Positions 1 to 51,225 of a DNA stretch of 51,225 bases are shown piece by piece (the stretch's first letter is position 1; every line of letters starts with the position of its first letter). A model generated the notes under the pieces. It did not search any database. It was given only the letters and a program-made list of their open reading frames with translations, and was not told where the DNA came from. A program made the position numbers and the translations under genes. This DNA is from Candidatus Omnitrophota bacterium (GTDB taxonomy: Bacteria; Omnitrophota; Gorgyraeia; Pluralincolimonadales; Pluralincolimonadaceae), in contig JAQUPL010000009.1 of assembly GCA_028716565.1 (NCBI GenBank), positions 1 through 51,225 of the forward strand. Direction: 5' to 3'.

Positions 1-5
1 TGGAA

Positions 6-958: not shown

Positions 959-966
959 GAGCTGAT

Positions 967-2940: not shown

Positions 2941-2980
2941 AGTGCGGATGAAGAGGATGAAGCTGGTATCTGTATGACCG

Positions 2981-3713: not shown

Positions 3714-4054
3714 TGGGAGCAAATTTTGAACCAGGATCCAGCCATGTAGCACACGTCCAAGTAACGAACAAAGCGCGAAAGCCATATAACTACAGGCTGA
3801 CATTTATGCTTACGAGCGATTATGCCGCTATCGTGCCTCAAGTGCTTGGCTACAAAAATATATCACTGGAAGCCGGCGAGTCCGGAGTCATTGATATGGA
3901 GATCACGTTCTGGGGGTTTGAGGTTTTGACATATCTGCAGATATCTGGTTACGAGGAAACGACCGAAACGCCCCTGGGTGTGCTTTATGAAGAGGAAGTT
4001 AATCTGGAGATCGTCAGCCAACCAGAGGCTTCCATCACCCTGTATTGGGATTAA
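3713..4054 (+). CDS. single Ig-like domain protein ending in ASITLYWD
   Basis: SD GGAGGT, TAATG coupling; alternating beta pattern; starts ANFEPGSSH. Confidence 0.6.
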   Translation: MGANFEPGSSHVAHVQVTNKARKPYNYRLTFMLTSDYAAIVPQVLGYKNISLEAGESGVIDMEITFWGFEVLTYLQISGYEETTETPLGVLYEEEVNLEIVSQPEASITLYWD

Positions 4055-4073
4055 AAAAGTAGCGAGGTATATT

Positions 4074-4220
4074 ATGGAGAAGAAGAAGGCTATAGCATTA
4101 ACAGCAGTCGGCGTGGGATCAGCACTAGGCCTGGGATGGCTAATGTCTAGGCTTATAAAACCGGACGAGGGCGAAGGAGAAGAAACGCCGGAGCTATCAG
4201 TGAATATGTATTGGGATTAA
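4074..4220 (+). CDS. 48-aa membrane anchor ending in ELSVNMYWD
   Basis: SD GAGGT; KKK plus TM helix, acidic linker, YWD end. Confidence 0.65.
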   Translation: MEKKKAIALTAVGVGSALGLGWLMSRLIKPDEGEGEETPELSVNMYWD

Positions 4221-4231
4221 AGGAGTTTACT

Positions 4232-5530
4232 ATGCCGGTGTATTTTGACTCAGGAACAACTCACATACTGCGTATGGAGGTTTTAAACCCTACGTCGCGC
4301 AGTTGGCGCTATCGGATCGTTATTACGTCAGGTAGTAACTTGATAGACGATAAAGTTATTGATATAGACGCCGGTGCAACTAAGCGTTTAAGCACTGAAG
4401 TACAAATGCCTGAAGTGACAGAAACCACAACGGTAAATTTTAAAGCACACGTCTATGAAGTAAGCAGTACCCCCAACTATGATATGGGGGTCAAAGCTGA
4501 TATTGACGTTATAGTAATGAATATACCAGTAGGTAGCGAATATAATGCCGCCGCTTATTTTGACGACCAGCAAGGCGACTCATATTTGTTTGAATCTGGT
4601 ACGGAGCATAAAATCACTGTGAAGTTCACCAACCCTTACGATACCGCTCATCAATTCTATATTAGTGGCTTACTGGGATCTTTTAGCGCTATCGAGGAGT
4701 GGGGGTTCTTTACAGTCGCAGCAGGTCAGACGATCACCAAGGAAGCGATAATATTAATGGGTGACACACCGCAGGTAGTAGGGCCTGTTACTTTCAGTAT
4801 ACATTGTACGACAAAGGGGATTCCCGGCGTGGATGTGGCTACAGGGTCTCTCGAAATAGTGGAGTCGCAAACTGTACAGGACGGTACTATCGAGATGATC
4901 CCCCTGCAAATGTCGGTAGGCCAGGGGCGAGCTCTGGAGTTTGACGTAAAGATAACCAATCCCACTAATAAAAAGTGGTCTTATCAGTATACCGCTTGGA
5001 TACAGGATGCAAACGGCAAAAGCGTAGGGGGGATTACATCTACCCTTGGCGTCGGACCTTATAGCTCAGAAACTGCCAGATATAAGGTATCCGTCATATA
5101 TCCAAGTATGATATATCCGCCCGTAGGGATTGCATATCTTAAAACATCCTTCATGGGGGCATGGCAAAACCATGGAACCATTAACGTCACAAGTGCGAGC
5201 GAGCCGGGCGCTACTGCCACGTTAACAAATTACCAGTGGACCGACATAGAACGCTATATGTTCAAGGCCACAATTAAGAACACTTCCAGCATCCAGAAAC
5301 GATTCTACTTATATGGATATATATATGATGGCACTGACTTACAGACGTATGGAATACTTGGTACACTTGATTTAGCGGCGGGGCAGTCAGGTGCCGTAGA
5401 GAATCAACTGATGCCTTATAGCGTTGGATCATACAACGTTAAAGTTAAAGTCATAACCTATGAAGAAGGCACCTGGGTTGTGAGTGAGTTAGAGACTTTT
5501 AGCGCCGGCACGGTAAATATTTCAGGTTAG
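4232..5530 (+). CDS. multi Ig-like domain spike protein (about 4 domains)
   Basis: SD AAGGAG; repeated motifs VLNPT/FTNPY/ITNPT/IKNTS and FDSGTTH/FESGTEH. Confidence 0.7.
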   Translation: MPVYFDSGTTHILRMEVLNPTSRSWRYRIVITSGSNLIDDKVIDIDAGATKRLSTEVQMPEVTETTTVNFKAHVYEVSSTPNYDMGVKADIDVIVMNIPVGSEYNAAAYFDDQQGDSYLFESGTEHKITVKFTNPYDTAHQFYISGLLGSFSAIEEWGFFTVAAGQTITKEAIILMGDTPQVVGPVTFSIHCTTKGIPGVDVATGSLEIVESQTVQDGTIEMIPLQMSVGQGRALEFDVKITNPTNKKWSYQYTAWIQDANGKSVGGITSTLGVGPYSSETARYKVSVIYPSMIYPPVGIAYLKTSFMGAWQNHGTINVTSASEPGATATLTNYQWTDIERYMFKATIKNTSSIQKRFYLYGYIYDGTDLQTYGILGTLDLAAGQSGAVENQLMPYSVGSYNVKVKVITYEEGTWVVSELETFSAGTVNISG

Positions 5531-5551
5531 TAATATAAACTGAGCATCGAT

Positions 5552-5719
5552 ATGAAAACAGGTAGCGTTTTAGTCACAATAGCGGCGATCGCCGCGGCTT
5601 GCGGGATCGGCTATTACGTTGTGAAAAGGACGCAGTATGATAGCCAAGCAATCATCCCTGTAGTTAAGCTAGTGCCGGGAGCAACTGCGGTCGGCGCCAG
5701 GAGCATGGGGATATACTGA
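5552..5719 (+). CDS. 55-aa TM protein (not in ORF track)
   Basis: Translated by hand: MKTGSVLVTIAAIAAACGIGYYVVKR... Confidence 0.5.
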   Translation: MKTGSVLVTIAAIAAACGIGYYVVKRTQYDSQAIIPVVKLVPGATAVGARSMGIY

Positions 5720-16118: not shown

Positions 16119-17210
16119 CTACTTCATCAGCCTGACATCCAGCGCCTCGAGGACGTTCCGGATATCGTTGCCGATCGTGATAGTATCGTTGCCGGCGAAC
16201 AACAGACAAACAGCGCGCCTCTGCTTGTCCAGGATAAGAGAGCCGCTATCGCCGCCGGCGGAGAACTGGCCGCCGATGCCGCTGATGATAACCTGGTCCT
16301 CAAAGATAGCATAATCTCCATCCCCCATATTGACGTTGACTATGTTATCGATACTGTTGATTTTGCCGCGGGTTATTTCAGTGGTGCGCCCCCGCTTCAT
16401 CACTTCCATTCCGACCTCCGGAGCCGCCACACCGGTAACAGATCCTATTTCCGGGATGAACGGGTCGATATCTGCGGGATCAACCGGTAGTGCAAGAGCG
16501 CAGTCTACTTTATTGGTCGCGCTGCGATAGCTTGTAAACCGCTCCCGGCTGCCAAATATCCTGGCCAGTCGGTCCCCCATCTTGATATAGAGTTTGGTAA
16601 GCGGGCAGTCGCTCGAGTTGACCGTCTCGATCTCCACGAAGTCGTCTAGTGTAGCGATAACGTCTCCGGGTTCTCTGCCTCCATCATAGTAGCCCTGCTG
16701 CAGGATGCTGTCGCCGACCTTCCCTTTATTGACGTTGGCCAGGACATGGTTATTACTCAGTATCATCGCGGTGCCGCTCTGGTTCTCGTAGACTACGGCA
16801 CCGAATGTGCCGGCGGTGATATCTTTATGCCCGATGCTGCAGCCGGGGTGCGCCGGTCGCTCTCTGGCCGTGATATCACGCATTGTGTACCCCAGTCTGC
16901 GATGCTCGATGGTCTCGACGACCTGGTGGCCTTTCCTCATCGTCTCTCGTTTTTTATCGAAACGCGGTTCATCCAAGCGCAGCTTGATCTCACCGCCGAC
17001 CTCTACTACATCCGTGCGCCGGCCCTTGATAACAACCGGCACCCGATCGCGCTTGGACAGCGCTGAAAGCGGCACCTTCCTCGCAACGCTGACCACAATA
17101 GCCGGCTGCCGTGTGTCGGTGCCATCGGTCTTCTTTGTGCCGCGGCCCACCGCCACGACATTCTTCTTCTTGAGCAGGTCCAGTGCTATTTGCCTTTCCT
17201 GTTTGTTCAT
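16119..17210 (-). CDS. trypsin-like (S1, Nal1-like) serine protease with N-terminal prodomain
   Basis: ILSNNHVLA (His), VDCAL (Asp), GRTT, GDSGS (Ser). Confidence 0.9.
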   Translation of the reverse strand: MNKQERQIALDLLKKKNVVAVGRGTKKTDGTDTRQPAIVVSVARKVPLSALSKRDRVPVVIKGRRTDVVEVGGEIKLRLDEPRFDKKRETMRKGHQVVETIEHRRLGYTMRDITARERPAHPGCSIGHKDITAGTFGAVVYENQSGTAMILSNNHVLANVNKGKVGDSILQQGYYDGGREPGDVIATLDDFVEIETVNSSDCPLTKLYIKMGDRLARIFGSRERFTSYRSATNKVDCALALPVDPADIDPFIPEIGSVTGVAAPEVGMEVMKRGRTTEITRGKINSIDNIVNVNMGDGDYAIFEDQVIISGIGGQFSAGGDSGSLILDKQRRAVCLLFAGNDTITIGNDIRNVLEALDVRLMK

Positions 17211-39070: not shown

Positions 39071-39106
39071 TAGCCTCCTTTAGCTATGTAGCCTCCTTTA
39101 GCTATG
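39071..39106. repeat. 18-bp tandem duplication of stop + SD
   Basis: TAGCCTCCTTTAGCTATG x2. Confidence 0.85.
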
Positions 39107-39769: not shown

Positions 39770-39834
39770 TTTATACCTCCCGAAGCCTCTTTGAACATAG
39801 CATAAAACCACAGCCTGGTCAAGGCCGCAGGGGG

Positions 39835-40346: not shown

Positions 40347-41009
40347 ATGACGAAAGTTAATGTGCTCCCCGGGCCTTCAAACCCCTCAAAAGAAGAAAAC
40401 CTCAAATTTATTGAGTCTGGCGCCAGCCAAAATAAAAGGAGCCAAAAAAGTAGTCTCAAAAAGGAGCCAGAAATAACTCCAGAGCGTATACTTGTATGGC
40501 GGTGTTTATGCAACGCCGAAAGCGACAGGTTCGGCAAGGACTACATAGCTCACATCAGGGAAGCAAAAGAAAAAGGCGAGAAGGATAAGCATAAATGGCG
40601 GCTGGTCGACGCCGAAACAGGAGAGGTTCTGGCCGACAATATGCGGCAGGCGAACCTCCTCGGTCTATCCGCCACGAAAGTAGCTCACCCCCCCCAGCTC
40701 GCCTGGGGCAGCGGCCAGAAGAATAAAGATGAGGATAAAGAGGAAAAACCTGACTGGAAGCCGAGATCGCCGCTTGTCGCAAAGTGGGTCGCGGCCACCG
40801 ATGAGCTGCCCGCGGAGCTCCTCCTTCTTTATAAACTATTCTGTGATAGATGCGTAGCCATGGGTATGGAGCCGCCCAGCCGCGGAGAGTGGATAACGCA
40901 GACAATAACACAGTTTTACCTGGAACACGCCAAAGACTTCGACCTAAGAGGGATGGCCGGCGAGTTTTGCGTTAAAGTATGTGGAGGCAGTGAGAATGGA
41001 CAAAGATAA
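40347..41009 (+). CDS. hypothetical protein, first gene after the origin
   Basis: Strong SD; 220 aa. Confidence 0.65.
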   Translation: MTKVNVLPGPSNPSKEENLKFIESGASQNKRSQKSSLKKEPEITPERILVWRCLCNAESDRFGKDYIAHIREAKEKGEKDKHKWRLVDAETGEVLADNMRQANLLGLSATKVAHPPQLAWGSGQKNKDEDKEEKPDWKPRSPLVAKWVAATDELPAELLLLYKLFCDRCVAMGMEPPSRGEWITQTITQFYLEHAKDFDLRGMAGEFCVKVCGGSENGQR

Positions 41010-42201
41010 TAAAAAAGCTACAGTGAGTGATGTTATACCCTTCAGGCCGGTAGGCGGCGATAGCAGCGATCAGCCGGCACTAAAAAAGAAGGTAACCGCC
41101 GATGATATATTGGCGAGCCTAAACGAACAACTTGAGATAGCAAAGATCGGTAAGATCGGGCAGGCGATGGGCGCGTTTGATTCGCCTTATTCTAATAGAG
41201 TGGCGTCGTCGGTCGGAGAGAATAACCTCGAGCAGCTGGCAAAAGTCGGCAATATGCTCGGTATCGACTTTACCAAAATAAGCGAGATAAGGCAGAGGGA
41301 AACCGAGGCTTTGCGCTCCGAGTTGGATCAAGAACGACGGGCTAACCTCGAGATGAGGTTAGGCACCATCGACAGCGTAGTGGCTCGCATGTACGAGACT
41401 ATGCAGGCCTTCGTTAAGAGCCAGAATGAGGCTAGAAACAATTCCGGGGCGTCCGGGTTGTTTGGCCTGGCCGACCAGGTAACAGGTAACGCCTTGACCA
41501 CGGCAGCGGTCAATAAGCTACTTAACCTGGATCAGGCGGCTACAAAACCCAAGGATCCGGTAGATGAGATATTAGACAGATTATCGCTTGGAGATAGGTT
41601 AAAGAGAGCTTTAGGGGTTGAAGAGCCGCAGCGCACGGCTTTGGATCCCAGTAGTATAGCCAGTATAGGCCGGCTTGAGGTCGCCCGTCTATTATTAGAC
41701 GATGACCGAGAACGTGAAAGAATGAGACAGACCCAGGATTTACAGAAGATGAAGATGGAGAAGCTCGGCAGCTTCTTCGAGATGGTGCAGAGTTATATGC
41801 CTGATATACTTGCAGCGGTCTCTCCAAAAAGGGGCGGCGAAAAAGATGAGGGTGAAGAAACATCTACTGATGTGACGGCGCCGCGGCCTGCCCCGCGCCC
41901 TCAGCCTAAAAGGTCTTCAGTGAAACATCAGGAGCCGCCATCTGAACCAGACCGCGCCCAAGCTGTGGTAGCAACCAAGAATACACCGCTCCCTGAGCAA
42001 TTTATTATCGAAGAAGTAGCCTGTCCACACCCGGGCTGCGGTAAGCCGTTAAAATTCCCTGTAAATATACCTGCCGGCTATGGTGTTGTTTGCCCCCACT
42101 GTAATCGGGATGTCGTAAAAGGTCCGGACGCCGAAGCGCCGGTAGACGACAGCGCACCGGATCAGGCCGATGAAAGCAAAGAAAAAGACAGAAAGGGGTA
42201 G
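40996..42201 (+). CDS. long coiled-coil protein with C-terminal zinc ribbon (possible internal virion/scaffold protein)
   Basis: SD GGAGG; heptads; CPHPGC..CPHC. Confidence 0.6.
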   Translation: MDKDNKKATVSDVIPFRPVGGDSSDQPALKKKVTADDILASLNEQLEIAKIGKIGQAMGAFDSPYSNRVASSVGENNLEQLAKVGNMLGIDFTKISEIRQRETEALRSELDQERRANLEMRLGTIDSVVARMYETMQAFVKSQNEARNNSGASGLFGLADQVTGNALTTAAVNKLLNLDQAATKPKDPVDEILDRLSLGDRLKRALGVEEPQRTALDPSSIASIGRLEVARLLLDDDRERERMRQTQDLQKMKMEKLGSFFEMVQSYMPDILAAVSPKRGGEKDEGEETSTDVTAPRPAPRPQPKRSSVKHQEPPSEPDRAQAVVATKNTPLPEQFIIEEVACPHPGCGKPLKFPVNIPAGYGVVCPHCNRDVVKGPDAEAPVDDSAPDQADESKEKDRKG

Positions 42202-42210
42202 TTGACGGCC

Positions 42211-42624
42211 ATGGTATCAGAGAACAGTTTTATAACACGCCTGGTAACATCCAGGATAACAAGGCCGATAGCTGAGTTTATTGCTTACTACCTGGGCGCG
42301 CTGGAGGCGCAGGAACTCGAGAGACGTATCAATGAAGGGTGGAGTCTTGTGGATATGCTGAAACAGCGACCGCGGGAGGAGCTGCTTCTGGTGGTGGACA
42401 CGATCCTTGAAGGTTACCCGGATATCAAAAGACGAATAGATAAGTCAAGGAAAGCCGGCGCGCCGGCGGCAAAAAACAAAGGGTTGGAACTACTGGAGAA
42501 TATCAGTGTAGACAGGTTGATATTTCTGATATCGGATAAGCTGCCGGCACAGGGCGCGGTCCTTGCCAGACACCCAGGATGGGTCCAGGGTGAGCTGAAG
42601 TCCGTGGGCACTCTGTTAGTTTGA
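42211..42624 (+). CDS. helical hypothetical protein
   Basis: Operon position; 137 aa. Confidence 0.55.
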   Translation: MVSENSFITRLVTSRITRPIAEFIAYYLGALEAQELERRINEGWSLVDMLKQRPREELLLVVDTILEGYPDIKRRIDKSRKAGAPAAKNKGLELLENISVDRLIFLISDKLPAQGAVLARHPGWVQGELKSVGTLLV

Positions 42625-42698: not shown

Positions 42699-43352
42699 AT
42701 GGATTATCCTGTTTATGGCAAGCGCTTCGGTAATGAGTACCTCGATATCCGCGAATTCGTGACGCCATTTACCCCGAGCGTCCGGGACGTGCTCGCCGGG
42801 ATCAGCGCAGAGGGCGACAGGATATGGAACTGCTGGGATTGGGTATGCCATAACATTAAGTATCCGCCTTCATGTAATGATGTACAGGACTTCCACGAAA
42901 AAGTCAGCTTCCTTCGCGGCTGCCCCATCATCAGGATGCCGGTGAAACGCTCCAGTAAGATCGATGACTTCTGGGAGCTGCCGTGGGAAACGCTGGATCC
43001 ACCGCGCTACGGCGACTGTGAAGGGTCGGCAACGGTCCTTGTATCATTATTAAGAAACTTCATGCCGGAGAATGAGGTTTATTGCACCGTCGGCACTTAC
43101 ACCGGGTGGGGACACGCCTGGGTATCGATAGTACAGGGATCTAGCTTCTTTACCCTGGACACGACAATACCAGAAGCTAAAATTGAAGGAGTGAGCGCTG
43201 TGGCAGAGGGCGACCCTTACGTTCCATATATCAGGTTTAACGATAAGCTGGTTATAGAGGAGCGGGATGGGTGGCAGGACTTTTGTAACTTCCCGCGTAA
43301 TAAGCAGGCCAAGATGGATGCATTATACGCGCATTACAGGATACAAAGGTGA
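42699..43352 (+). CDS. transglutaminase-like cysteine protease fold protein
   Basis: WDWVCHNIKY, YGDCEGSA (Cys), GHAWV (His), LDTT (Asp). Confidence 0.85.
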   Translation: MDYPVYGKRFGNEYLDIREFVTPFTPSVRDVLAGISAEGDRIWNCWDWVCHNIKYPPSCNDVQDFHEKVSFLRGCPIIRMPVKRSSKIDDFWELPWETLDPPRYGDCEGSATVLVSLLRNFMPENEVYCTVGTYTGWGHAWVSIVQGSSFFTLDTTIPEAKIEGVSAVAEGDPYVPYIRFNDKLVIEERDGWQDFCNFPRNKQAKMDALYAHYRIQR

Positions 43353-43386
43353 TTATTACGCCGTAATAACGCGAGGATGGTGAGAC

Positions 43387-43920
43387 ATGAATGTATCTAT
43401 AAGCGATATGCAGGCCCCTGAGACCGCTGGTACAGGTGATGAGATTCGACCCTACTGCACCGTGCATCTGGCGGACGGCGCGCCTGCAGTAGGATTCGGG
43501 CTTGGGTGGTATGACGACGTGCAGGGCTCCCAGATTGAGTATGACGGCATAACAATCCTCAGCCCTAACCATGAGGATGAAGTATTGCGTCCCGAGGGAA
43601 GGCCGATGCCTAACACGCAGAGCGCGACTTTTAAAGTAGCCATCTTCCTCCCAATCTATAGCGACGAGCTTGGATACAGCGACCAAGAGATCGCCGAGCT
43701 GGAGGCCGCAGGGATCCTTTGGATTAGAACAGATGTAACGCAGAGTTTCACGGTGAAAAACACCGATTTTCAGGATATACCCGATGACGGTGATGAAAAT
43801 GGCGGGGAAGAGGAAGTCGATGGTAGTTTTTGGAAGAAATGGTGGATACCTGTTACCGCAGGCCTGGCGGTGGCCGCGTCCGCTATCGGCATAGGTGTGT
43901 ACCTGAAACGGAGGTCGTAA
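43387..43920 (+). CDS. beta-rich protein with C-terminal TM anchor
   Basis: Acidic linker, then WKKWWIPVTAGLAVAASAIGIGVYLKRR. Confidence 0.65.
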   Translation: MNVSISDMQAPETAGTGDEIRPYCTVHLADGAPAVGFGLGWYDDVQGSQIEYDGITILSPNHEDEVLRPEGRPMPNTQSATFKVAIFLPIYSDELGYSDQEIAELEAAGILWIRTDVTQSFTVKNTDFQDIPDDGDENGGEEEVDGSFWKKWWIPVTAGLAVAASAIGIGVYLKRRS

Positions 43921-45158
43921 TGGCAGAAGAAGAGAAAGCACCTGCACCTTCTCCACCCCAGGCGTTTATTATGAGGTCCGCCGGAGGCGGGATTCTGCCT
44001 CTTGTTGTCGGCGGCGTTGTGGCCGGCGCCATCATCGGCGGCGTTGTTTGGTTTGTAATGCGCGGCGGCGTTGAGGATCTCACTTATTTTGATATCTCTG
44101 TTGAGATAGTGGACCCGGTACTTCCGCGGGGAGGCGTCGCCGAGGTTGAAGTTACAATCACTAATAAATCAGAGTCGGTGCAATCGCCGATCTTGCGCCT
44201 GGATATGTGGGGTACCGGCATATTTGAGTCCCCGATCGAGGGGGCTCCCCAGTCGGTCGGAGCCCTGCAGCCCGGAGAAACCGCGAACGTCATAATCAGT
44301 TATACGCTGCCGGGGGACTGGGGTCCGGGGAAACAGTTGAACGCACAGCTTATTCTGCTTGGCGTCAGCGGGCCGGTATGGACCGCCAGCGCGGCGTTCG
44401 CTATCCAGAGCGATACAGGGGACACGGGCATACTTGAGATAGTTAGTGTGAGGGCCGTTAACCCGTCGCTTGTCGTGGGGAAGGTTCAGCAGGCTCAGGT
44501 TGAGGTTATTGTGAATAACAGCACTCAATCGAATCTCTTACGCACGTTCAGGCTGGACTTAATAGCAGAAAATAAATTAACGCCTTATGAAGGTCAAGAT
44601 AAGTTAATATCTCTACCCGCCGGAGAGCCGACGACATTTACTTTAAGCTGTAACGTACCGATGGACTGGACCGAGCAGCAATCTCCAGTAGCTGCCAAAA
44701 TACAGAACATTGGAGAAGAAGGACCATTCTGGGGCGATGTGGGCGGCAGTGAAGAATTTGAGATATTTACGCTGTTGAACGAGGGAGCTGATTTCCAGGA
44801 TACTGAAAACCTTATCATGACCTCAAAGACGCCGGCGAGCGGACTGCTTTCCAACGGCCAGGCGTTTAGTGTAACGATGAATGTTATTTATAAGGGAGGG
44901 GGAGCTTTTCTGTTTGGCGCCGGGCTGAAAGATGGCAGTGAGGACGGCGTGTGGGCTACTGCGAATGCTCTACTCCCAAGCTCGAGCGATTGGGCTACTG
45001 TGAGCGTGACGATGACAGGAGTGTTCTATTCCACCCTCGGATCAGGTCGTAGCATCGATATGATTAAAGCCGTACAAAAGGTCGGCGGCGACCTGAACAT
45101 CGGTGGCGGCGGTATGATTAAAGCGGATTGGGACAGGGACGTATTTAAAGTAGCGTAG
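43920..45158 (+). CDS. N-terminally anchored multi Ig-like (CARDB-like) membrane protein
   Basis: TM ILPLVVGGVVAGAIIGGVVWFV; EVEVTITNKSE..LQPGETANV repeats. Confidence 0.7.
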   Translation: MAEEEKAPAPSPPQAFIMRSAGGGILPLVVGGVVAGAIIGGVVWFVMRGGVEDLTYFDISVEIVDPVLPRGGVAEVEVTITNKSESVQSPILRLDMWGTGIFESPIEGAPQSVGALQPGETANVIISYTLPGDWGPGKQLNAQLILLGVSGPVWTASAAFAIQSDTGDTGILEIVSVRAVNPSLVVGKVQQAQVEVIVNNSTQSNLLRTFRLDLIAENKLTPYEGQDKLISLPAGEPTTFTLSCNVPMDWTEQQSPVAAKIQNIGEEGPFWGDVGGSEEFEIFTLLNEGADFQDTENLIMTSKTPASGLLSNGQAFSVTMNVIYKGGGAFLFGAGLKDGSEDGVWATANALLPSSSDWATVSVTMTGVFYSTLGSGRSIDMIKAVQKVGGDLNIGGGGMIKADWDRDVFKVA

Positions 45159-45172
45159 CTGGAGGATAAAGG

Positions 45173-45331
45173 ATGAAGAATAATATCAATATCGGCGTTC
45201 TTTTAGGTACGTTTAGTTTGATATTAGGTATATCCAGCGTGACGCTTGGTGTTATATCGCTTTTTAGAAAGCCAGATATAAACGATACTGCGTTCGAATA
45301 TGATATAGATGAGCTTTCACCAGCGGAATAA
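45173..45331 (+). CDS. 52-aa TM protein (not in ORF track)
   Basis: Translated by hand: MKNNINIGVLLGTFSLILGISSVTLGVISLFRK... Confidence 0.55.
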   Translation: MKNNINIGVLLGTFSLILGISSVTLGVISLFRKPDINDTAFEYDIDELSPAE

Positions 45332-45336
45332 CACTA

Positions 45337-45365
45337 TTGACAAACTTTTAATAATCGGATATCGT
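45337..45365 (+). promoter_or_regulatory. sigma70-type promoter of the capsid operon
   Basis: TTGACA-N17-TATCGT. Confidence 0.7.
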
Positions 45366-45371
45366 TCAAAT

Positions 45372-45434
45372 TGAGCCCAGAGACTGTTCGTATTAGGAAA
45401 GGTCTGGGCTCATTTCTTTTTACGACAGTCTCTG
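45372..45434 (+). promoter_or_regulatory. leader with two overlapping alternative stems (attenuator or pseudoknot)
   Basis: 45372-81/45403-12 followed by TTTCTTTT, versus 45378-92/45421-34. Confidence 0.5.
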
Positions 45435-45509
45435 CGGACTCAAAATAAATATCGGTGAGCGTTTTGACGTAACCGTAAAATGAGCGCGTACCGGAGAAAG
45501 AAGGACACC

Positions 45510-45884
45510 ATGGCAGCAAAGGTAAATGTGGTCGCAGGAAGTGCGGGAGCCAAAGCCATCGTCCTCGGGGGCGCTTTCGTCACAGGGCTCGCAATGAGCC
45601 AGCTCGTCAAAGCGAGACCGACATGGGGCATGCCGCTGACCCTTCTCCTGGGAGCAGGAGGTGTCGCGGGCGCCATGTATCTGGACGGTGTTCCGGGTGA
45701 AGCATCAATGGGTATCGCCGCGGCGAGCGTGGCCACCCTCGGTGCGTCACTGCCCTCACTGATGAGTGGCACCAGCACCGGCAGACGGGCCGGGTCCCCG
45801 GTAGCGTTACCGGCGGCCAGGCGCGCAGGGTTACCTGTGGCTTATGACTGGCGCGACACCCAGCCGATAAAACCGCAGGTATAG
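45510..45884 (+). CDS. putative major membrane protein
   Basis: SD AAGAAGGA; three G/A-rich hydrophobic helices; immediately precedes the capsid-like genes. Confidence 0.6.
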   Translation: MAAKVNVVAGSAGAKAIVLGGAFVTGLAMSQLVKARPTWGMPLTLLLGAGGVAGAMYLDGVPGEASMGIAAASVATLGASLPSLMSGTSTGRRAGSPVALPAARRAGLPVAYDWRDTQPIKPQV

Positions 45885-45943
45885 TCAGGGATGATGAGAA
45901 TCAACCCCCAGTATTAACTTATACTTAGAAGGAGGAACCAACC

Positions 45944-46537
45944 ATGGGACTGTTAGATGATCCAAAATATAAGGGAGCATCATTTTCCACTTTCATACCG
46001 TCGGGTGAGCTGACGGTAACAGATCAGAAGAACATGAAGGAATCCGCGATAGCAGCGGGTATGGACCGCGCTATTTACAAGAAGCTTGGCGCAAATGGCG
46101 CTGAGCTCGCAGTACGCGAGATACGCCCGAGTATCGACCTGCCTACAGCCTTCGCCGCCGGCGATCGCTGGATATTCCCGGCGCCCGCAGCCGCGGTAGC
46201 CGCGGCCTTCACCGTCACCAACTGGATCAACGAGCGCGTGCCCGTAAACACAATCCTGGTGTTCTTCGGCGCCGCTTTCGAAGCCGCTGCCCCGGAGATC
46301 TCCGAGATATTCTTCCGCAGCGGCCCCGGCGGAGCTGGTCGCACCGCGGCAGTTGTCAATGTTGAGAGCTGCTACACCAAGATGGAGAGCGACGGGTACT
46401 TCGGTGTCCCTGTCACATACGACCCGCAGGAGAACTGCTTCATCCAGGTGACGAACAGGATCCCAATCGGCGCTGCCGGCACGATCCTTATCCTCAAGGG
46501 GTACGCGATCGAGCCACGCCGCGAGCAGGTCAGCTAA
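45944..46537 (+). CDS. putative single jelly-roll major capsid protein 1
   Basis: Strong SD AAGGAGG; 197 aa; N-terminal helix then about 8 beta strands (ILVFFG, EIFFR, YFGVPVTY, LILKGYAIEP). Confidence 0.5.
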   Translation: MGLLDDPKYKGASFSTFIPSGELTVTDQKNMKESAIAAGMDRAIYKKLGANGAELAVREIRPSIDLPTAFAAGDRWIFPAPAAAVAAAFTVTNWINERVPVNTILVFFGAAFEAAAPEISEIFFRSGPGGAGRTAAVVNVESCYTKMESDGYFGVPVTYDPQENCFIQVTNRIPIGAAGTILILKGYAIEPRREQVS

Positions 46538-46577
46538 CCACTGTGTCCATTAAATTTAGAGAGAGGAGTACAAGCTA

Positions 46578-47039
46578 ATGGGAGTACCACAGGAAACAAA
46601 GGCAACATATAAGACTCTTGTAGAGAGCGACCTTATCCGTTATACCGTTCAGCCGGTCGGTGCGCCGACAGCAGCAGTGTCAGATGCGGCTGCGGGCGCC
46701 TGGGTCTGGTCTGCATACGTGCAGATCGTGGCCGCGGCGGCTGTGCCTAATCCGTGCTGGTTATGCGGAGTGTTCATAACGACTCCAGTCGTGGAGGCGT
46801 TCCTGGCAGACTTCGCCATCGCCAGCGGTGTAGCGTTGGCTGAAGTAGATCTGGCAATGGTCCACTTCGGCAGCGAGCTGTTCGCCGTGGTAGAGGGCAA
46901 AAACACGCCGTATATGCTGCCCCATCCTATACGGATAGTCGGCAGCCCCCGCCTCGCGGTCCGGGTGCGCAAGAGCACAGCCGCGAGCCTTGCAGGCGCA
47001 AGCATGAAATTGCTAATCGCAGCGGCAGTAGGCACATAA
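46578..47039 (+). CDS. putative jelly-roll capsid/vertex protein
   Basis: SD GAGGAG; 153 aa, all-beta pattern. Confidence 0.45.
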   Translation: MGVPQETKATYKTLVESDLIRYTVQPVGAPTAAVSDAAAGAWVWSAYVQIVAAAAVPNPCWLCGVFITTPVVEAFLADFAIASGVALAEVDLAMVHFGSELFAVVEGKNTPYMLPHPIRIVGSPRLAVRVRKSTAASLAGASMKLLIAAAVGT

Positions 47040-47060
47040 GCCTAATATAAGTAGCAACCG

Positions 47061-47087
47061 AGTGGGGGCGGGTCTCCCGCCCCCACT
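47061..47087 (+). terminator. 12-bp GC hairpin between capsid gene pairs (terminator or mRNA stabiliser)
   Basis: AGTGGGGGCGGG/CCCGCCCCCACT; weak U-tract. Confidence 0.6.
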
Positions 47088-47237
47088 ATTCCAGACAATT
47101 GAATACAGACCATTTCAAGGAATGAAGGAACAATGAGAATGGTTGAAACCGCAATACATAAATCAATAGCAATCATAGAGCAGAGGTCAAACCCCCAGCC
47201 GGAGAGCCGCGGGGTTTTATTGTTTTAAAACAGGAGG

Positions 47238-47813
47238 ATGGACATGGCAGAAAGATTGTATGCTGCAAAGGCTGGGCCGATTGACCCCATCGCACTGGTG
47301 AACGAGAACGTGGCGATTTGGATGAAAGCCATGTGGCACCTGTACCGGGTTATGTTCGTTGAGCCGATGCCGCGGTCACAAGCGATGATCTTCGACCAGG
47401 GCGCGCTCGCAGCGCTGGCTAATTCCGGTGATGTGAGACTCATTAACCTGGACCAGCAAACGACACCGCCGGGCATGATACAACTCAGGTGTTTCCCGCT
47501 GGACGATATCCAGGTGGAGGTGAAGCTCGGCAGGGCGGAAAGCAGGTTCACCGCCGCCAATATCTCAGCGCGTGTCGACAGGTTCACAGAGATTAGCGAT
47601 CCGTGCCTGCACACTACCGAGATCGTAATACTGCAGGACAACTCGATATGGGTCAACTGCACCAATCCAACAGCCTATGCCACAGCGATGTCACGGATAG
47701 CGTTCTTCGGCTACCGATACATGCTCGAGGATATGAAGATCGCTGAGAAGACACCTAACGAAGTCAAGCAGAAAGTTAACCAAGTGGTATTCGTGCCGTC
47801 TGGCAGCGATTAG
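47238..47813 (+). CDS. putative single jelly-roll major capsid protein 2
   Basis: SD CAGGAGG; 191 aa, beta-rich; C-terminal RIAFFGYRY parallels LILKGYAIE of 45944..46537. Confidence 0.5.
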   Translation: MDMAERLYAAKAGPIDPIALVNENVAIWMKAMWHLYRVMFVEPMPRSQAMIFDQGALAALANSGDVRLINLDQQTTPPGMIQLRCFPLDDIQVEVKLGRAESRFTAANISARVDRFTEISDPCLHTTEIVILQDNSIWVNCTNPTAYATAMSRIAFFGYRYMLEDMKIAEKTPNEVKQKVNQVVFVPSGSD

Positions 47814-47837
47814 CCGATAACATGAGGAGGTTTGACC

Positions 47838-48188
47838 ATGGTTCAGAATAGATCGGGAATCAGAAAGCAGTCTGCGGTAGTCGTATCGCCGGTAACCGGC
47901 GCGGCTGCTGCACTGTACAATATCACACCGGGCAGGACCGCCATCATCCGCAGGATAATGTGGACCAACGCCTGCGGCGCCGGCTCCAACTTGAGCTTGG
48001 GACAGGGGCTTGCCGGCGCCTTCGCCGCCGTGCTGCCGCCGATAGTGACGCTCACCGGATTAGACGGGCAACTTGAGGAGGGAGACTTCCCAAACGTCGA
48101 GATCCAGTGGACCGCCGCGCTACCCGCGATAACGTTCGAATCGACAGTGCTCGGTATCAGTGTTACTATCGAAGTCGAAGAAATTTAA
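47838..48188 (+). CDS. small jelly-roll-like virion protein
   Basis: SD GAGGAGG; alternating beta pattern ending VTIEVEEI. Confidence 0.5.
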   Translation: MVQNRSGIRKQSAVVVSPVTGAAAALYNITPGRTAIIRRIMWTNACGAGSNLSLGQGLAGAFAAVLPPIVTLTGLDGQLEEGDFPNVEIQWTAALPAITFESTVLGISVTIEVEEI

Positions 48189-48200
48189 AGGAGGCCTCTC

Positions 48201-48704
48201 ATGGCAAAGCAGACAGGGCCTCGTATACCGTTCTCAGTACCGGGAGGAGGAGGCAATTTCCTCGACAAATATATGTCGGCTGATGATAAACTGAAGGTGG
48301 TTGGCGAGCAACTGGAATCATTAACGAATTACTTACAGGAGCTGGGAGGTGAACAAATGACCATGGGAAGAACACAGGAAGTGCCCTTCCAGCAGATATT
48401 AGTTCCAGGGCAAGCGTTAAGGCTGAGCGTCCAATCTCCTTATCCGGGTAAAGTTAGAAAGATACTAAGGCATTGGCCGGCAGGCTGCAATGCCCTGGTC
48501 GATGTCGCCGTAGGCATCGGTAATAAGCGTATACTGCCCGAGACAGGCTTCGTTGCGCTTAATGACGCGACCCCGGTATTTGACAACCTTAATATCCCAG
48601 TGGCCCAGGAGGAAAACATTTGGGTAGATATGCAAAACGGCGACGCGATTAACCCGCACACGATCACTGTGACAGTCACCGTGGAGGAGGATATCAGTGG
48701 CTAG
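48201..48704 (+). CDS. virion protein: N-terminal helix + jelly-roll-like domain (penton-like)
   Basis: SD AAGGAGG; HWPAGCNALVDV..NPHTITVTVTVEE. Confidence 0.5.
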   Translation: MAKQTGPRIPFSVPGGGGNFLDKYMSADDKLKVVGEQLESLTNYLQELGGEQMTMGRTQEVPFQQILVPGQALRLSVQSPYPGKVRKILRHWPAGCNALVDVAVGIGNKRILPETGFVALNDATPVFDNLNIPVAQEENIWVDMQNGDAINPHTITVTVTVEEDISG

Positions 48705-49476
48705 TATCGCGAGAGAATGGACAATAGAACCACGCGGCGTAGGCCTCCCGGACTACTCATCCCAGGCTCCGATCGGCGGGGTGCCGCAGGGGAGCATATA
48801 CACAAACAACGATAACGGCGAGCTGGCCACGCGCCTGGGTGCCTATAACTCCATCGACAGGCGCGGCAGTGTGGTCATCCACGACAACTTTGAGAACGGA
48901 TTATCTTCCTGGGTGCCGACACTTGGGGCCGGCGCGGGCAGTGATTGCGAGTGGAGCACGGAGAGCTTCAGGAACGGCGGATTCAGTATGAAGCTCAGCG
49001 GCGGTCTGGCCACGAATTCTAGTGTGCGGCGTAGTTGGGGCGTAGACAACCCTAACAAAGCGGGTATGGAGTTCTCCTTCGCGATAGAGCTCTTTAATAT
49101 ACTGTCCGGCATCAGTTATTACTCGGATAACGTCAACCAGTATTACGCCATGTGGTACCTGGTGGGGGCACAGCTCTATGTTTTTGATGCTACCGCCGGC
49201 GCAGTCCTTGTTAGTAATGACGTTGAAGCGCTCTTCGACGACCAGAGCTACAATACTATAAAGATGGTATGGGATACTCAGACCGCACTCTATACACGCA
49301 TTTTATTCAACCAGAACGAGTTTGATATCACCCAGCGCAGTGTGCCTTTCTTGCCCGCACCGATAGCCGGTAAGCATATGGCCGCAGAGTTCCAGATAGC
49401 AAGCGCCGCAGCCAGGAATGATTATACTTACCTGGATGATTTTATAGCGACGATCAACGAGCCAAATAACACTTAA
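48697..49476 (+). CDS. virion protein with lectin/carbohydrate-binding-like beta sandwich
   Basis: HDNFENGLSSW..YLDDF bracket typical of laminin-G/ConA-like domains. Confidence 0.5.
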   Translation: MASIAREWTIEPRGVGLPDYSSQAPIGGVPQGSIYTNNDNGELATRLGAYNSIDRRGSVVIHDNFENGLSSWVPTLGAGAGSDCEWSTESFRNGGFSMKLSGGLATNSSVRRSWGVDNPNKAGMEFSFAIELFNILSGISYYSDNVNQYYAMWYLVGAQLYVFDATAGAVLVSNDVEALFDDQSYNTIKMVWDTQTALYTRILFNQNEFDITQRSVPFLPAPIAGKHMAAEFQIASAAARNDYTYLDDFIATINEPNNT

Positions 49477-49486
49477 GAGGTGGGGT

Positions 49487-50161
49487 ATGTCAGCAGGAAG
49501 TAAGATATTTGGGAAGGATTATTTAAGCTCAACTCCTGGTCGTGAAGTTTGGATACCACTGCGCCTGCTTCCGGATGGCTCGATATCCACCATCTCAAGC
49601 GTAGTAGTAGATGAGGGGGTGGCAACTGGGGGCACTAACCTTACCCTTATCGATACCACAAAGAACTGGGGTGTCGATATCATGGAAGGCAGAACGGTTG
49701 AGATTACTCATATTGCTACCGGCATAAGCTACCAGCGATACATAACCACCAATGCAGCTACCGCAATCAGCTTTGACGATCTTGGAGTAGCTGTACTTGC
49801 TGGAGATACTTACCGTATTCTGATCGCCAATAGCCCCATGGAGCCGCAGGTGAGGGCTACCGTACACAACACGGCTTACCTTACTCCGGCCGATTTTCTT
49901 GGAGCGGCCCTGGCGCCTATAATCAGCCCGTCGCTCTTCCGTTGCCAGGTGGCGTGCACCGTTAGCGGAATATTTTACGTGACCATTACCCGCGCCGGCA
50001 ATACCCAGACAGTGGCTTATAACCATGCTGTAGCACTGCCTGCAGGCGCGCTTTTTGAGTTTGATACGCTGGTAGCGGACGGCGATACTATCAATTATCA
50101 ATACGGTATCAACTGCACTATCCAGACATTCAAGGTTTTAGAGATCCCGTCAGCGATTTAA
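49487..50161 (+). CDS. virion/spike adaptor protein
   Basis: SD GAGGTGGG; beta-rich. Confidence 0.5.
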   Translation: MSAGSKIFGKDYLSSTPGREVWIPLRLLPDGSISTISSVVVDEGVATGGTNLTLIDTTKNWGVDIMEGRTVEITHIATGISYQRYITTNAATAISFDDLGVAVLAGDTYRILIANSPMEPQVRATVHNTAYLTPADFLGAALAPIISPSLFRCQVACTVSGIFYVTITRAGNTQTVAYNHAVALPAGALFEFDTLVADGDTINYQYGINCTIQTFKVLEIPSAI

Positions 50162-50171
50162 GGAGTGAGCG

Positions 50172-51225
50172 ATGGCTAAAGGAGGAACACCGTCACAAGG
50201 CCTTTGGATGCCGCCGAGAGTGGCAACTCTTTTTGTGGCGGCTTCCGATTCGCTGGACAAGTGCCGCGCCCAGGCGGACTATATCTGCGACGGCGTGGCG
50301 GACGAAGTTCAGATCAACGCGGCTTTGGCAGATCTGCCGGCGGGCGGCGGGCGAGTGGTGCTCTCCGAGGGTAATTTTATACTGGCGGATCCCATAATAG
50401 TTCCCGGCGATTACATTACTATCGAAGGGCAAAACTTTGCCACCGCAATAGATGGCGCCGGGTTAGCCACCGGCGAGCACGGTATCGTTATCAGTGGTAT
50501 AGCAGGATCAAAGGTAAAAAATCTCGTAATATATACGAGAGGCGGTGGCGGTAAAGTATGCCACTGTATCTTCATAGAAGCCGCCTACGATACTACTTTA
50601 GTTGAAGATGTAGCTATAGTAGAGAGTGATAGCGATGGCATACATATAGAAGGCACGGAATCCGATAATATTGTTATTAGAGGCTGCTGGATAGCTTCTA
50701 CGGATAACCACGGCATTAACATAGTGCCTGATGTAACCGAGCAGAGTCTCAGGTTCTCTATATACAATAACTTTATTACAGCTACAGGAGCCAGCGGTAT
50801 CAATTTTGGTCAGTGTGTGGGGCACTATTACCACAAGATATACAATAACCTGATGACTTCCATCGGGGACAATGGCATAGATTACGGTATCGCTACCGTG
50901 CCGACGTTCGGCCTGATGGAGAGCGAGATCAAAGACAATTATATCTACGGTGCTATCGCCAATGGTATAAGGCTGCTCTCCGACTCCAATAACAACTTCT
51001 TCGAGAACAACTTCATAAGCTCCTGCGGCGGTTACGGTATCAATATCGGCGGTCCCACCTGTATCAATAATCGCCTCATGAACAATGTACTGATCGGTAA
51101 CGTTTCCGGCGCGGCACAGGACTTAGGCGTAGGCACGCAGCTGCCGTTCATCTTCATACCGGTGCCTAATCCCTCGACCAACATCGGCGCGCACCCCGCC
51201 GAGCAGCTCACCGACGACCTGGAAG
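50172..51225 (+). CDS. beta-helix spike protein, N-terminal part (continues at 6..359; 468 aa joined)
   Basis: SD AAGGAG; VAASDS..CDGVADEVQINAALADLPAGGG; PbH1 repeats; no stop before the window end. Confidence 0.85.
   Translation, partial: MAKGGTPSQGLWMPPRVATLFVAASDSLDKCRAQADYICDGVADEVQINAALADLPAGGGRVVLSEGNFILADPIIVPGDYITIEGQNFATAIDGAGLATGEHGIVISGIAGSKVKNLVIYTRGGGGKVCHCIFIEAAYDTTLVEDVAIVESDSDGIHIEGTESDNIVIRGCWIASTDNHGINIVPDVTEQSLRFSIYNNFITATGASGINFGQCVGHYYHKIYNNLMTSIGDNGIDYGIATVPTFGLMESEIKDNYIYGAIANGIRLLSDSNNNFFENNFISSCGGYGINIGGPTCINNRLMNNVLIGNVSGAAQDLGVGTQLPFIFIPVPNPSTNIGAHPAEQLTDDLE

Follow-up and report, generated by a model that had tools for sequence, protein, structure and literature searches.

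A complete circular 51-kb genome with a conserved jelly-roll gene module, a candidate new lineage of tailless viruses

Results

The window analysed here, a stretch of 51,225 nucleotides, is the complete circular genome of an uncultured element. Both of its ends carry the same six nucleotides (TGGAAG), and merging this overlap gives a true circle length of 51,219 bp. In an assembly of run X1 made independently, a contig of 3,310 bp spans positions 48951-51225 and 1-1041 and bridges the two ends, while a beta-helix ORF (470/468 aa) reads in frame through the circle junction, so that an earlier note's claim of a complete genome is borne out. The genome comes from landfill leachate; binning grouped it with an Omnitrophota MAG (metagenome-assembled genome), and grouped its relatives with one of Dehalococcoidia.

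That note had also claimed that terminase, portal, HK97 capsid and tail genes are absent and that dnaN and def are present. Searches of 81 ORFs with three HMM libraries (Pfam, PHROGs and NCBIfam) upheld the absence: no terminase, portal, HK97 capsid or tail-tube/sheath family was found among the matches listed (the best 25 of 41 matched families for PHROGs, and the best 25 of 35 for NCBIfam), and the only 'tail' labels in the genome were one tail-spike and one 'minor tail protein' PHROG. Inspection of all window ORFs revealed no unannotated ORF both sufficiently large and otherwise unexplained, and the large ORFs of distant relatives likewise yielded none of the hallmark families. Significant matches confirmed dnaN (2.5e-15 and 9e-14) and def (5.5e-31). 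ParB, a tyrosine integrase and DUF5131 were confirmed as well. The genome also has a weakly matching Lar-like protein, an origin-like repeat region and a very basic 184-aa protein at 17266-17820. No replication polymerase was recognised in the genome, and its ORFs encode no secretion system. Given ParB, the origin and the integrase, a plasmid-like lifestyle also fits.

A block of forward-strand genes at 45.5-50.2 kb, for which no database match was obtained, begins with a Gly/Ala-rich hydrophobic protein of 124 aa (45510..45884), a candidate membrane or sub-capsomer protein with 2-3 moderately hydrophobic segments. A like protein lies directly 5' of the 197-aa family gene in all relatives, distant ones included (L001, L007, L009, L018, L019 and L020), in agreement with the earlier placing of a membrane-type protein beside small beta proteins. 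The following gene (45944..46537) encodes jelly-roll protein A of 197 aa, which AlphaFold2 folded from a deep alignment into a jelly roll (pLDDT 90.7, pTM 0.86). Its best full-length Foldseek match was the SPV1 capsid chain 6oj0_A (prob 1.0, TM 0.46/0.50), a 178-aa chain not assigned to VP4 or VP10; IBDV VP2, CCMV and P23-77 VP16 (prob 0.97, TM 0.31) were also matched, and Ena endospore-appendage pilins stood among the top matches (prob 0.99). The protein is 62-93% identical in close relatives, and an exhaustive search across 1.8 billion representative proteins gave a family of 195 clusters, four members of which are natural tandem duplications of the whole domain (331-427 aa). Such a tandem fusion is the step from single to double jelly roll that has been proposed for capsid proteins (PMC8812541). 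The gene is preceded by a consensus-type Shine-Dalgarno (ribosome-binding) sequence, GAAGGAGGA, which, combined with a terminator after the pair of 197- and 153-aa genes, is expected of a strongly expressed coat gene. Protein A is the best candidate for the major capsid protein.

The second gene of this pair (46578..47039) encodes a hypervariable 153-aa protein, a candidate exposed capsid or decoration protein, with at least two allele classes (32-37% or 59-63% identity) between flanking genes that are 75-93% identical; homologues were found in the distant relatives L018 and L019. The intergenic region behind it (47061..47225, forward strand; fold z = -2.5) contains a 12-bp GC hairpin at 47061-47087 and, at about 47190-47225, a hairpin that resembles a terminator and precedes a U-run, and relatives keep a gap of 166-200 nt at this place. 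Jelly-roll protein B of 189 aa (47244..47813), the second conserved capsid candidate, was also folded as a jelly roll from a deep alignment (pLDDT 83.8, pTM 0.77). Its top Foldseek matches were the coat proteins of SBMV, TYMV, BMV, CMV and SeMV, all weak (E >= 2e-3, TM 0.25-0.36), and it has 48 homologues down to about 27% identity. The earlier note had proposed five all-beta proteins of 120-200 aa, and the proposal holds for A and B, the two of the five that were folded. Next come a conserved 116-aa protein (47838..48188), a candidate vertex (penton) protein that is 65-84% identical in close relatives and detected in L018, L019 and L020, and three further conserved proteins of 167, 259 and 224 aa (48201..50161) without family matches, whose genes keep their synteny in close relatives as well as in L020, a 75-kb relative from IMG/VR. 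The fold matches of both jelly rolls are weak (E about 1e-3, TM at most 0.5). Many are viral coat proteins (SPV1, IBDV VP2, P23-77 VP16, sobemo-, tymo- and bromoviruses), but jelly rolls of non-viral origin (CBMs, Ena pilins, GOLD domains and cupins) are matched too, and the fold by itself is no proof that the proteins form a capsid.

This block is embedded in a longer forward-strand late module. Upstream, three conserved opening genes (40347..42624; 220, 406 and 140 aa) gave no Pfam or PHROG match but are syntenic and 23-69% identical in L001, L002, L004, L007, L014, L016 and L017; the 406-aa product, with its coiled-coil, low-complexity sequence and C-terminal zinc ribbon, is possibly a scaffold or internal protein. 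They are followed by a transglutaminase-like protein (Cys-His-Asp; 42699..43352), 36-79% identical in all relatives. An earlier assignment to this class gained support: the match to Pfam Transglut_core stayed below the cut-off (E=0.005), yet hhalign aligned the protein with the SSIP-1 structural protein gp34 at 95.3% probability (E=2e-8), and it is probably a virion-associated enzyme. Membrane-anchored proteins occupy 43387..45331, namely a 177-aa protein with a C-terminal TM segment, a protein of about 412 aa, probably starting at 43920, that combines Ig-like repeats with an N-terminal TM segment, and a TM peptide of 52 aa; PKD-domain proteins take this position in relatives, and 43369-44538 is replaced in a related strain.

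Beta-helix spike 1 crosses the junction, with its N-terminal part at 50172..51225 and its C-terminal part at 1..359, the first 6 nt of which repeat the last 6 nt of the window; it matches Pfam Beta_helix (1.8e-8) and is 58-72% identical in relatives. The distal genes (359..5719, forward strand) have homologues in L001, L002, L004 and L020. They encode a 199-aa protein, the 657-aa beta-helix spike 2 (967-2940), an N-terminal-TM protein (2981-3472), Ig-like proteins with weak CARDB/Fn3 matches (3647-4054 and 4232-5530) and small TM peptides (3450-3713 and 5552-5719), and their Pfam matches include Beta_helix (1.4e-17) and NosD (3e-16). Two beta-helix proteins and, by hydropathy, several single-TM proteins are thus confirmed in the module, as the earlier reading of TM-anchored proteins and spikes had it. 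Inspection of the module sequences, beta-helix spikes included, showed no N-terminal signal peptide, indicating cytoplasmic assembly rather than cell-surface display.

On the reverse strand lie two further genes of interest. The sole Walker-A ATPase of the genome (20003..20803, 266 aa) sits far from the capsid-candidate genes. It had been taken for a FtsK/HerA-type enzyme but is not recognisable as such: it matched only nSTAND, AAA_16 and Zot, weakly, gave no PDB or phage match, and had nothing in common with P23-77 ORF13 or PRD1 P9 beyond the P-loop. No homologue was present in the 39 kb examined of a distant relative's 49-kb contig, and no packaging ATPase was recognised in the genome or beside the jelly-roll genes. 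The other gene encodes a trypsin-like (Nal1/S64-type) serine protease (16119..17210; phrog_20754, 9e-59, and Pfam S64/Nal1). In the distant relative L025 a homologue (6e-28) is encoded within the jelly-roll module, and the protein is a candidate maturation protease.

Synteny of the block was seen in over 20 contigs, which come from metagenomes of landfill, sediment and other sources, among them contigs of 44, 49, 50, 54.5 and 75 kb, one being an IMG/VR viral genome. In L018 and L019 the 197-, 153-, 189- and 116-aa genes are the only window genes detected, and L025 shares nothing with the window but the protease and the 197- and 189-aa families. The two jelly-roll genes are the most conserved of the module (61-93% identity). 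Relatives also carry HNH, VRR-NUC and primase phage-type genes, and one distant relative has a lytic transglycosylase within the module.

Discussion

We favour, with moderate confidence, a new lineage of tailless viruses with a jelly-roll capsid and a complete circular dsDNA genome; it would be a bacterial virus, probably a temperate one. The module families and the lineage are named in no database and are probably undescribed, which supports the earlier suggestion of a new lineage, but 'unusually large' was an overstatement, given that SSIP-1, a tailless membrane phage in culture, has a circular genome of 43.8 kb and the relatives found here reach 75 kb.

Among known systems, SPV1 (Portogloboviridae) provides the closest fold. 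Its tailless particle is built of small single-jelly-roll VP4 hexamers and VP10 pentamers over a lipid layer (PMC8459092), and it has no packaging ATPase (PMC8812541). Both genomes are circular dsDNA, and a packaging ATPase is recognised in neither. By contrast, SPV1 has a hyperthermophilic archaeal host and 20 kb of DNA whereas the window has 51 kb with bacterial-type dnaN and def, and the TM of 0.5 is a fold-level likeness without sequence similarity. The particle of SSIP-1 is icosahedral and tailless, encloses a membrane and uses coat proteins of two types (PMC6356626). Like the virus proposed here, SSIP-1 belongs to bacteria, has circular dsDNA of similar length and is almost without database matches. 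However, the gp34 link may reflect a common enzyme domain, and the virion modules may not share descent: the four core jelly-roll-module families showed no detectable similarity to any SSIP-1 ORF, and its giant 2,319-aa structural protein is absent from the window.

The earlier note had seen the layout of the Halopanivirales (Helvetiavirae; Thermus phage P23-77, SH1 and HCIV-1), whose tailless particles combine a pair of small jelly-roll coat proteins with numerous small membrane proteins, as proposed here. In P23-77 the gene for membrane-associated VP15 directly precedes that of the small coat protein VP16, as the 124-aa gene precedes the 197-aa gene. Nevertheless, this assignment was not supported. 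Profile comparison with P23-77 VP15, VP16, VP17, VP11 and the ATPase found nothing; the fold of protein A is nearer to SPV1 than to VP16; the window's jelly-roll genes are separated by the hypervariable gene and a terminator, with no FtsK/HerA ATPase beside them; and the genome is 2-3 times larger. The tailless, membrane-containing Bamfordvirae with vertex spikes (PRD1 and PM2) can be likened to the proposed particle in architecture, and the tandem members of the 197-aa family formally resemble double-jelly-roll coat proteins, although the window's own protein is single-domain, profile comparison found no similarity to PRD1 P9 or P31, and prokaryotic double-jelly-roll virus genomes are below 20 kb (PMC8812541).

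A virus might instead lack an icosahedral jelly-roll shell, being pleomorphic, enveloped or a membrane-wrapped nucleoprotein core, with the jelly rolls serving as spikes, lectin-like adhesins or sub-membrane proteins. Numerous TM proteins, the missing packaging ATPase, a basic 184-aa protein that could condense DNA, and jelly-roll matches to carbohydrate-binding modules and tail-fibre domains would all suit such a particle. We regard it as unlikely, since receptor-binding proteins are usually variable while both jelly-roll genes top the conservation of the module, the beta-helix and Ig-like proteins already provide separate spike candidates, the tandem fusions resemble double-jelly-roll capsomers, and coat proteins feature prominently in both top-match lists. 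We also consider it rather improbable that the genome belongs to a non-viral mobile element such as a plasmid, perhaps a phage-plasmid using a helper's capsid, whose module would form a structure on the cell surface, for example a jelly-roll fibre of the Ena kind, an adhesin or an S-layer. ParB, the origin-like repeats, the integrase and the Ena matches agree with it, as does the lack of a recognised replication polymerase or packaging motor; the module proteins, however, have no signal peptide and the genome no secretion system, IMG/VR holds one relative as a viral genome, and the transglutaminase-like protein has a homologue in the SSIP-1 virion. Phage-like organisation (a long co-directional late operon, DUF5131, the weak Lar-like match, def and depolymerase-type spikes) and the lytic transglycosylase and phage-type genes of the relatives also speak against it.

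Many ORFs lack annotation and HMMER-level searches can miss very remote homologues, so a highly divergent tailed phage (Duplodnaviria) with HK97 capsid, portal and terminase below detection was considered as well. TerL proteins measure about 400 aa or more, with ATPase and nuclease domains, whereas the single Walker-A protein has 266 aa. All ORFs of at least 250 aa are either explained or compositionally unlike portal and HK97 proteins (beta-helix, Ig repeats, coiled coil, DnaN, protease and integrase), no ORF has the size of a tape measure, and relatives of 44-75 kb equally lack the hallmarks, making this reading highly improbable.

For the favoured tailless jelly-roll virus, the module from about 40.3 kb through the junction to about 5.7 kb would specify a probably icosahedral particle, with the jelly-roll proteins as its putative capsid. 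The shell would consist of small single-jelly-roll proteins, with the 197-aa protein as major and the 189-aa protein as second subunit, the 153-aa protein as an exposed component and the 116-aa protein at the vertices. An internal membrane is plausible by hydropathy and analogy, and a lipid layer under the shell could hold the small TM proteins and the 124-aa protein. What the protease and the ATPase do, and how the DNA is packaged, we can only infer; the protease and the transglutaminase-like enzyme would serve maturation or entry. For its replication and maintenance the virus would depend on host machinery, recruited via the viral DnaN clamp, ParB, the origin region and the tyrosine integrase. 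The surface would be formed by the two beta-helix (depolymerase-like) spikes and the Ig-like proteins. In the relative L004, the spike region also carries a reverse-transcriptase gene.

Circular genome and gene content

The two ends of the window are joined by a contig of 3,310 bp, assembled independently from a landfill-metagenome run; its positions 1036-3310 correspond to window 48951-51225 and its positions 1-1041 to window 1-1041. The hexamer TGGAAG, found at both window ends (1-6 and 51220-51225), occurs as a single copy in this bridging contig, and the true circle is therefore 51,219 bp. Similarly, the ORF starting at 50172 runs without a stop to the window end and continues in frame into 3-359, with the single-copy redundancy giving a junction spike protein of 468 rather than 470 amino acids. 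The window is thus a complete circle, as an earlier note had assumed in calling it a complete genome. Read depth was even along the element in two landfill leachate runs, X1 and X2 (~27x in one and ~41x in the other). Contigs of X2 skip window 8098-8563 (464 bases) and 43369-44538 (1,168 bases), and several further stretches are without X2 coverage, indicating that a co-occurring strain has indels or replacements relative to the window, including one where the TM-anchored Ig proteins are encoded. No tRNA was found in the genome, and the window sequence was not found in any RNA run. The MAG holding the window is assigned to Omnitrophota, while two relatives (L016 and L017, contigs of 14 and 50 kb) share one Dehalococcoidia MAG from a landfill well; such contradictory bins make bin-based host calls unreliable for this group.

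Pfam, PHROGs and NCBIfam were searched with 81 non-overlapping ORFs, the families listed covering 25 of the 41 matched in PHROGs and 25 of the 35 matched in NCBIfam. Recognised by HMM-library match were a DnaN clamp (22770-23867, minus strand) and a peptide deformylase (def, 15191-15673), the two bacterial genes the earlier note had named, together with ParB (7012-7695), a tyrosine integrase (33863-34726, minus strand) and DUF5131 (35387-36100, minus strand). A methyltransferase, a thioredoxin-like protein, a DnaJ-domain protein, DUF5661 and two right-handed beta-helix proteins (967-2940 and the junction ORF) were also recognised. Among the listed matches of the 81 ORFs there was no terminase, portal, HK97 capsid, tail tube or sheath, or tape-measure family, bearing out the claim that the genome has no terminase, portal, HK97 capsid or tail; the HK97 capsid or terminase that was to speak against a tailless virus did not appear by profile search in the three libraries. 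'Tail' labels among the listed matches were confined to two PHROGs, one annotated as tail-spike and the other as 'minor tail protein' (the latter at 8.6e-9), and all ORFs of at least 250 amino acids were either annotated or compositionally unlike portal, terminase or HK97 proteins (Ig repeats, coiled coil).

A trypsin-like Nal1/S64 protease (16119-17210, minus strand) matched phrog_20754 at 9e-59, its homologues in deposited phage and virus genomes being only those of Aeropyrum coil-shaped virus (Spiraviridae; 30% identity) and a 484-kb uncultured phage. The adjoining gene (17266-17820, minus strand) codes for a strongly basic protein of 184 aa, the C-terminal half of which is extremely rich in Lys and Arg; speculatively, this protein might condense DNA in the core. 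Near an origin-like region, an 80-aa ORF (38507-38749, minus strand) is better conserved between the window and its relative L001 than any other gene compared, its 96% identity (78-79% to relatives L002 and L004) exceeding that of the coat candidates. A 263-aa gene adjoining the origin-like region (39098-39889, minus strand) has a 627-aa homologue in L004 (770-2653, minus strand) with a weak LAGLIDADG_3 match, and the extra length would suggest that an intein or a homing endonuclease has been inserted into what may be a replication protein.

A conserved module shared with relatives

Genes within 45480-50161 matched neither Pfam nor PHROGs. The 197-aa product (45944-46537) has 14 close homologues of 62-93% identity, and the contigs carrying them share one syntenic module. 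It begins with three conserved unknown genes, followed by a transglutaminase-like gene, genes for TM/Ig (or PKD) proteins and that of a ~120-aa hydrophobic protein; the 197-aa gene and a ~156-aa gene come next and, after a gap of ~170-200 nt, genes for proteins of 189, ~117, ~167, ~260 and ~222 aa and then beta-helix spikes. Contigs of the relatives include ones of 44.3, 49.2, 50.1, 54.6 and 74.9 kb, the largest being an IMG/VR viral genome. Scans of IMG/VR with the single 197-aa and 191-aa proteins gave no match, and the 191-family alignment (A4) retrieved one relative, the 75-kb viral genome. The proteins best conserved relative to the window are those of 197, 189 and 116 aa (61-93% identity), and in the distant relatives L018 and L019 only four families (197, 153, 189 and 116 aa) were detectable. 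Profile-profile comparison of the module proteins with one another gave no mutual homology. Genes in 46578-48704 are in a common reading frame and can be read through as one chain.

The 153-aa gene (46578-47039) is 32-37% identical in four relatives (L001, L002, L009 and L010) and 59-63% identical in five others (L004 and L011-L014). These allele classes diverge though flanking genes are 75-93% identical, with neighbours at ~90% in L010, for example, and from this pattern we suspect either an exchange of cassettes or diversifying selection acting on an exposed protein. Similar behaviour is shown by the 259-aa gene (48697-49476), with identities of 33-88%. In the 75-kb viral genome (L020), paralogue arrays lie between the two jelly-roll genes (L020:2037-7631), consisting of two plus three ~160-aa genes and three ~300-aa genes; its five 158-166-aa genes, in two paralogue groups, showed no detectable relation to the 153-aa family of the window. 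In L004, a reverse-transcriptase (RVT_1) gene that is absent from the window occupies the spike region (L004:18445-19452), ~300 nt downstream of a 521-aa gene; we take it as a probable diversity-generating retroelement that targets a receptor-binding protein.

Predicted jelly-roll folds of two module proteins

The earlier note had named five all-beta proteins of 120-200 aa for a jelly-roll check, and the two of them that were modelled, the 197- and 189-aa products (the latter at 47244-47813), both gave jelly rolls, the AlphaFold2 models being built from alignments of 80 and 48 sequences, respectively. In the 197-aa model (pLDDT 90.7, pTM 0.86), residues 25-45 form an N-terminal helix that leads into an eight-stranded sandwich. 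Its Foldseek matches in the PDB included IBDV VP2 (E=1e-3) and, over essentially the whole length, the SPV1 chain 6oj0_A (prob 1.0, TM 0.46/0.50, 12% identity), along with Ena pilins, CCMV coat protein, a weak match to P23-77 VP16 (prob 0.97, TM 0.31) and many carbohydrate-binding modules, with weak, generic jelly-roll matches in BFVD. The 189-aa model (pLDDT 83.8) is all-beta, with top PDB matches to SBMV, TYMV, BMV, CMV, PMV and SeMV coat proteins as well as to GOLD, cupin and CBM domains, all of them weak (E 2e-3 to 2e-2, TM 0.25-0.36); tblastn of this protein against 50,697 phage records gave no match. Both proteins are thus modelled as jelly rolls with viral coat proteins prominent among their matches, and Foldseek against the PDB (and BFVD for the 197-aa protein) gave no specific structural relative of either one. 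Sequence-profile searches of the PDB with the four core families gave only noise.

A possible packaging ATPase

A single Walker-A protein of 266 aa is coded by the genome (20003-20803, minus strand), in a minus-strand cluster ~25 kb from the candidate coat genes. Its designation as FtsK/HerA-type in the earlier note is unsupported, its matches being sub-threshold ones to nSTAND_NTPase5 and AAA_16 (~7e-3), Pfam Zot (0.025) and a Zot-like PHROG (2.5e-4), and similarity to P23-77 ORF13 being limited to the Walker A motif; comparison with PRD1 P9 by hhalign, which had been suggested as a check, gave no similarity. No match was obtained in the PDB or, by tblastn, in the 50,697 phage records. Positions 10-49 kb of the 49-kb L018 contig hold no homologue, and L018 carries other ATPases instead (AAA+/MCM-like/AAA_25). 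Given the distance from the coat genes and the result for L018, a role of the 266-aa protein as packaging enzyme is unproven. Packaging ATPases are absent from SPV1 and FLiP (PMC8812541), and lack of one would therefore be compatible with a jelly-roll virus. Candidate coat genes without a conserved packaging ATPase alongside raise the question of how at least 50 kb of DNA gets inside.

A probable virion module rather than a surface structure

The element is probably an undescribed bacterial virus, tailless and with a jelly-roll capsid, whose genome is complete here. A quite unlikely alternative is a non-viral plasmid-like element whose module builds a surface structure, for which the Ena pilins among the fold matches could be a precedent. 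The Ena endospore-appendage fibre is made by a spore-forming Firmicutes host. However, the window has no Pfam match to the Ena pilin family (DUF3992), the similarity is at fold level only (TMq ~0.3), and the context is that of a phage-like late operon. Sequence inspection revealed no N-terminal signal peptide in the module proteins, including both beta-helix spikes and the small beta proteins. Furthermore, the transglutaminase-like protein, already recognised as such in the earlier note, belongs to a family homologous to gp34 of SSIP-1, a cultured tailless membrane phage in which gp34 is annotated as a structural protein (hmmsearch 2.7e-7; hhalign 95.3%, E=2e-8). Also arguing against a surface structure are a lytic transglycosylase inside the module of a distant relative, the reverse-transcriptase gene that a close relative carries in its spike region, and the remaining genome of a distant relative, with its phage-type primase zinc ribbon, AAA_25, VRR-NUC, HNH and N6/N4 methyltransferase. 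Expression signals point the same way: the 197/153 gene pair is followed by a GC hairpin of 12 bp and by a terminator-like hairpin that has a U-run, and a consensus-type Shine-Dalgarno sequence precedes the 197-aa gene.

Among viral readings, a cryptic tailed phage would belong to Duplodnaviria, which differ in possessing an HK97-fold capsid, portal and large terminase that were not found among the listed Pfam, PHROGs and NCBIfam matches of the window, with its single 266-aa Walker-A protein, and this reading is very improbable. A virus of another morphology is unlikely. Returning to the tailless jelly-roll virus, the gene immediately upstream of the 197-family gene codes in every relative, even in distant ones in which similarity is lost, for a Gly/Ala-rich, moderately hydrophobic protein (~120-160 aa), and six or more proteins or peptides with a single TM pass are encoded in the module (at 43387, 43920, 45173, 2981, 3450 and 5552). 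This resembles P23-77, with membrane-associated VP15 ahead of VP16 and several small structural proteins after it (PMC12429598). By this analogy an internal membrane would be plausible, the likeness being suggestive only.

Relationship to known virus groups

The earlier note had matched the element to Halopanivirales, whose general plan it would follow, with small predicted jelly-roll proteins as candidate coat proteins, membrane proteins and no tail. By contrast, hhalign of P23-77 VP16, VP17 and VP11 against the 197-, 189-, 153-, 116- and 167-aa alignments gave probabilities of at most 1% throughout, leaving no coat-protein sequence or profile homology to VP16/VP17-type MCPs. Halopanivirales also carry a FtsK/HerA ATPase block with their MCP genes, unlike the window, whose genome is 2-3 times larger. 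The specific match thus fails in both sequence homology and ATPase block; the underlying observations were largely confirmed, with two of the five folds covered and the ATPase class excepted, and their interpretation is partly supported. Portogloboviridae (SPV1) provide the best full-length fold match and the shared lack of a recognised motor, a resemblance at fold level without sequence homology, but SPV1 has an archaeal (Sulfolobales) host and a ~20 kb genome in contrast to the bacterial-type dnaN/def and 51.2 kb of the window. SSIP-1, which infects bacteria, possesses a membrane, two coat types and a circular genome of 43.8 kb, and gp34 is its only virion protein with a match in the window; however, the candidate coat proteins of the window showed no detectable similarity to it. 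Bamfordvirae, characterised by a double-jelly-roll MCP and an A32/P9-type ATPase, differ in that the window has no two-domain coat gene and no similarity to PRD1 P9, tandem homologues occurring only in other members of the 197-aa family. The element is therefore placed outside Halopanivirales, Portogloboviridae and SSIP-1-like viruses; it would work most like them, and the most fitting description is a new lineage of broadly similar type.

To our knowledge, bacterial tailless jelly-roll viruses are represented by only a handful of isolates, mostly with genomes below 20 kb. Searches based on tailed-phage marker genes are blind to viruses of this kind, and the element with its relatives would add a large-genome (44-75 kb) lineage from anoxic, engineered and subsurface habitats, with candidate coat-protein families absent from Pfam, PHROGs, NCBIfam and, at sequence level, the PDB. 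As marker profiles, the family alignments A2 and A5 could help to retrieve the group from metagenomes.

Breadth of the 197-aa family and tandem fusions

With the 197-aa alignment as query, an HMM search run exhaustively over 1.84 billion representative proteins retrieved 195 clusters at E<=1e-3 (81 at <=1e-10), nearly all of 170-215 aa, and none of 80 diverse members matched any PHROG. Four longer members (P0051, P0142, P0144 and P0156; 331-427 aa) each contain two full domain copies, representing tandem duplication of the whole jelly-roll domain. The route from single- to double-jelly-roll capsids is currently disputed (PMC8812541), and tandem fusions within one family make the proposed SJR-to-DJR route testable on these sequences. 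A bolder reading, which we regard as possible but doubtful, is that the 197-aa family marks an unrecognised, widespread, high-rank lineage of bacterial dsDNA viruses (44-75 kb) with tailless SJR shells, sequence-unrelated to classified viruses; without a conserved packaging motor, encapsidation would proceed by condensation and co-assembly, as proposed for SPV1, and the coat gene would have been repeatedly duplicated and fused into a DJR-like protein. If true, repeated coat-gene fusion would show in extant viruses the SJR-to-DJR transition that is under debate for Varidnaviria. On the contig of the distant relative L025, a tandem gene (L025:12-1214) is followed by a single-domain paralogue, a 189-family gene and a homologue of the Nal1-like protease (6e-28), indicating that the protease travels with the module in some lineages.
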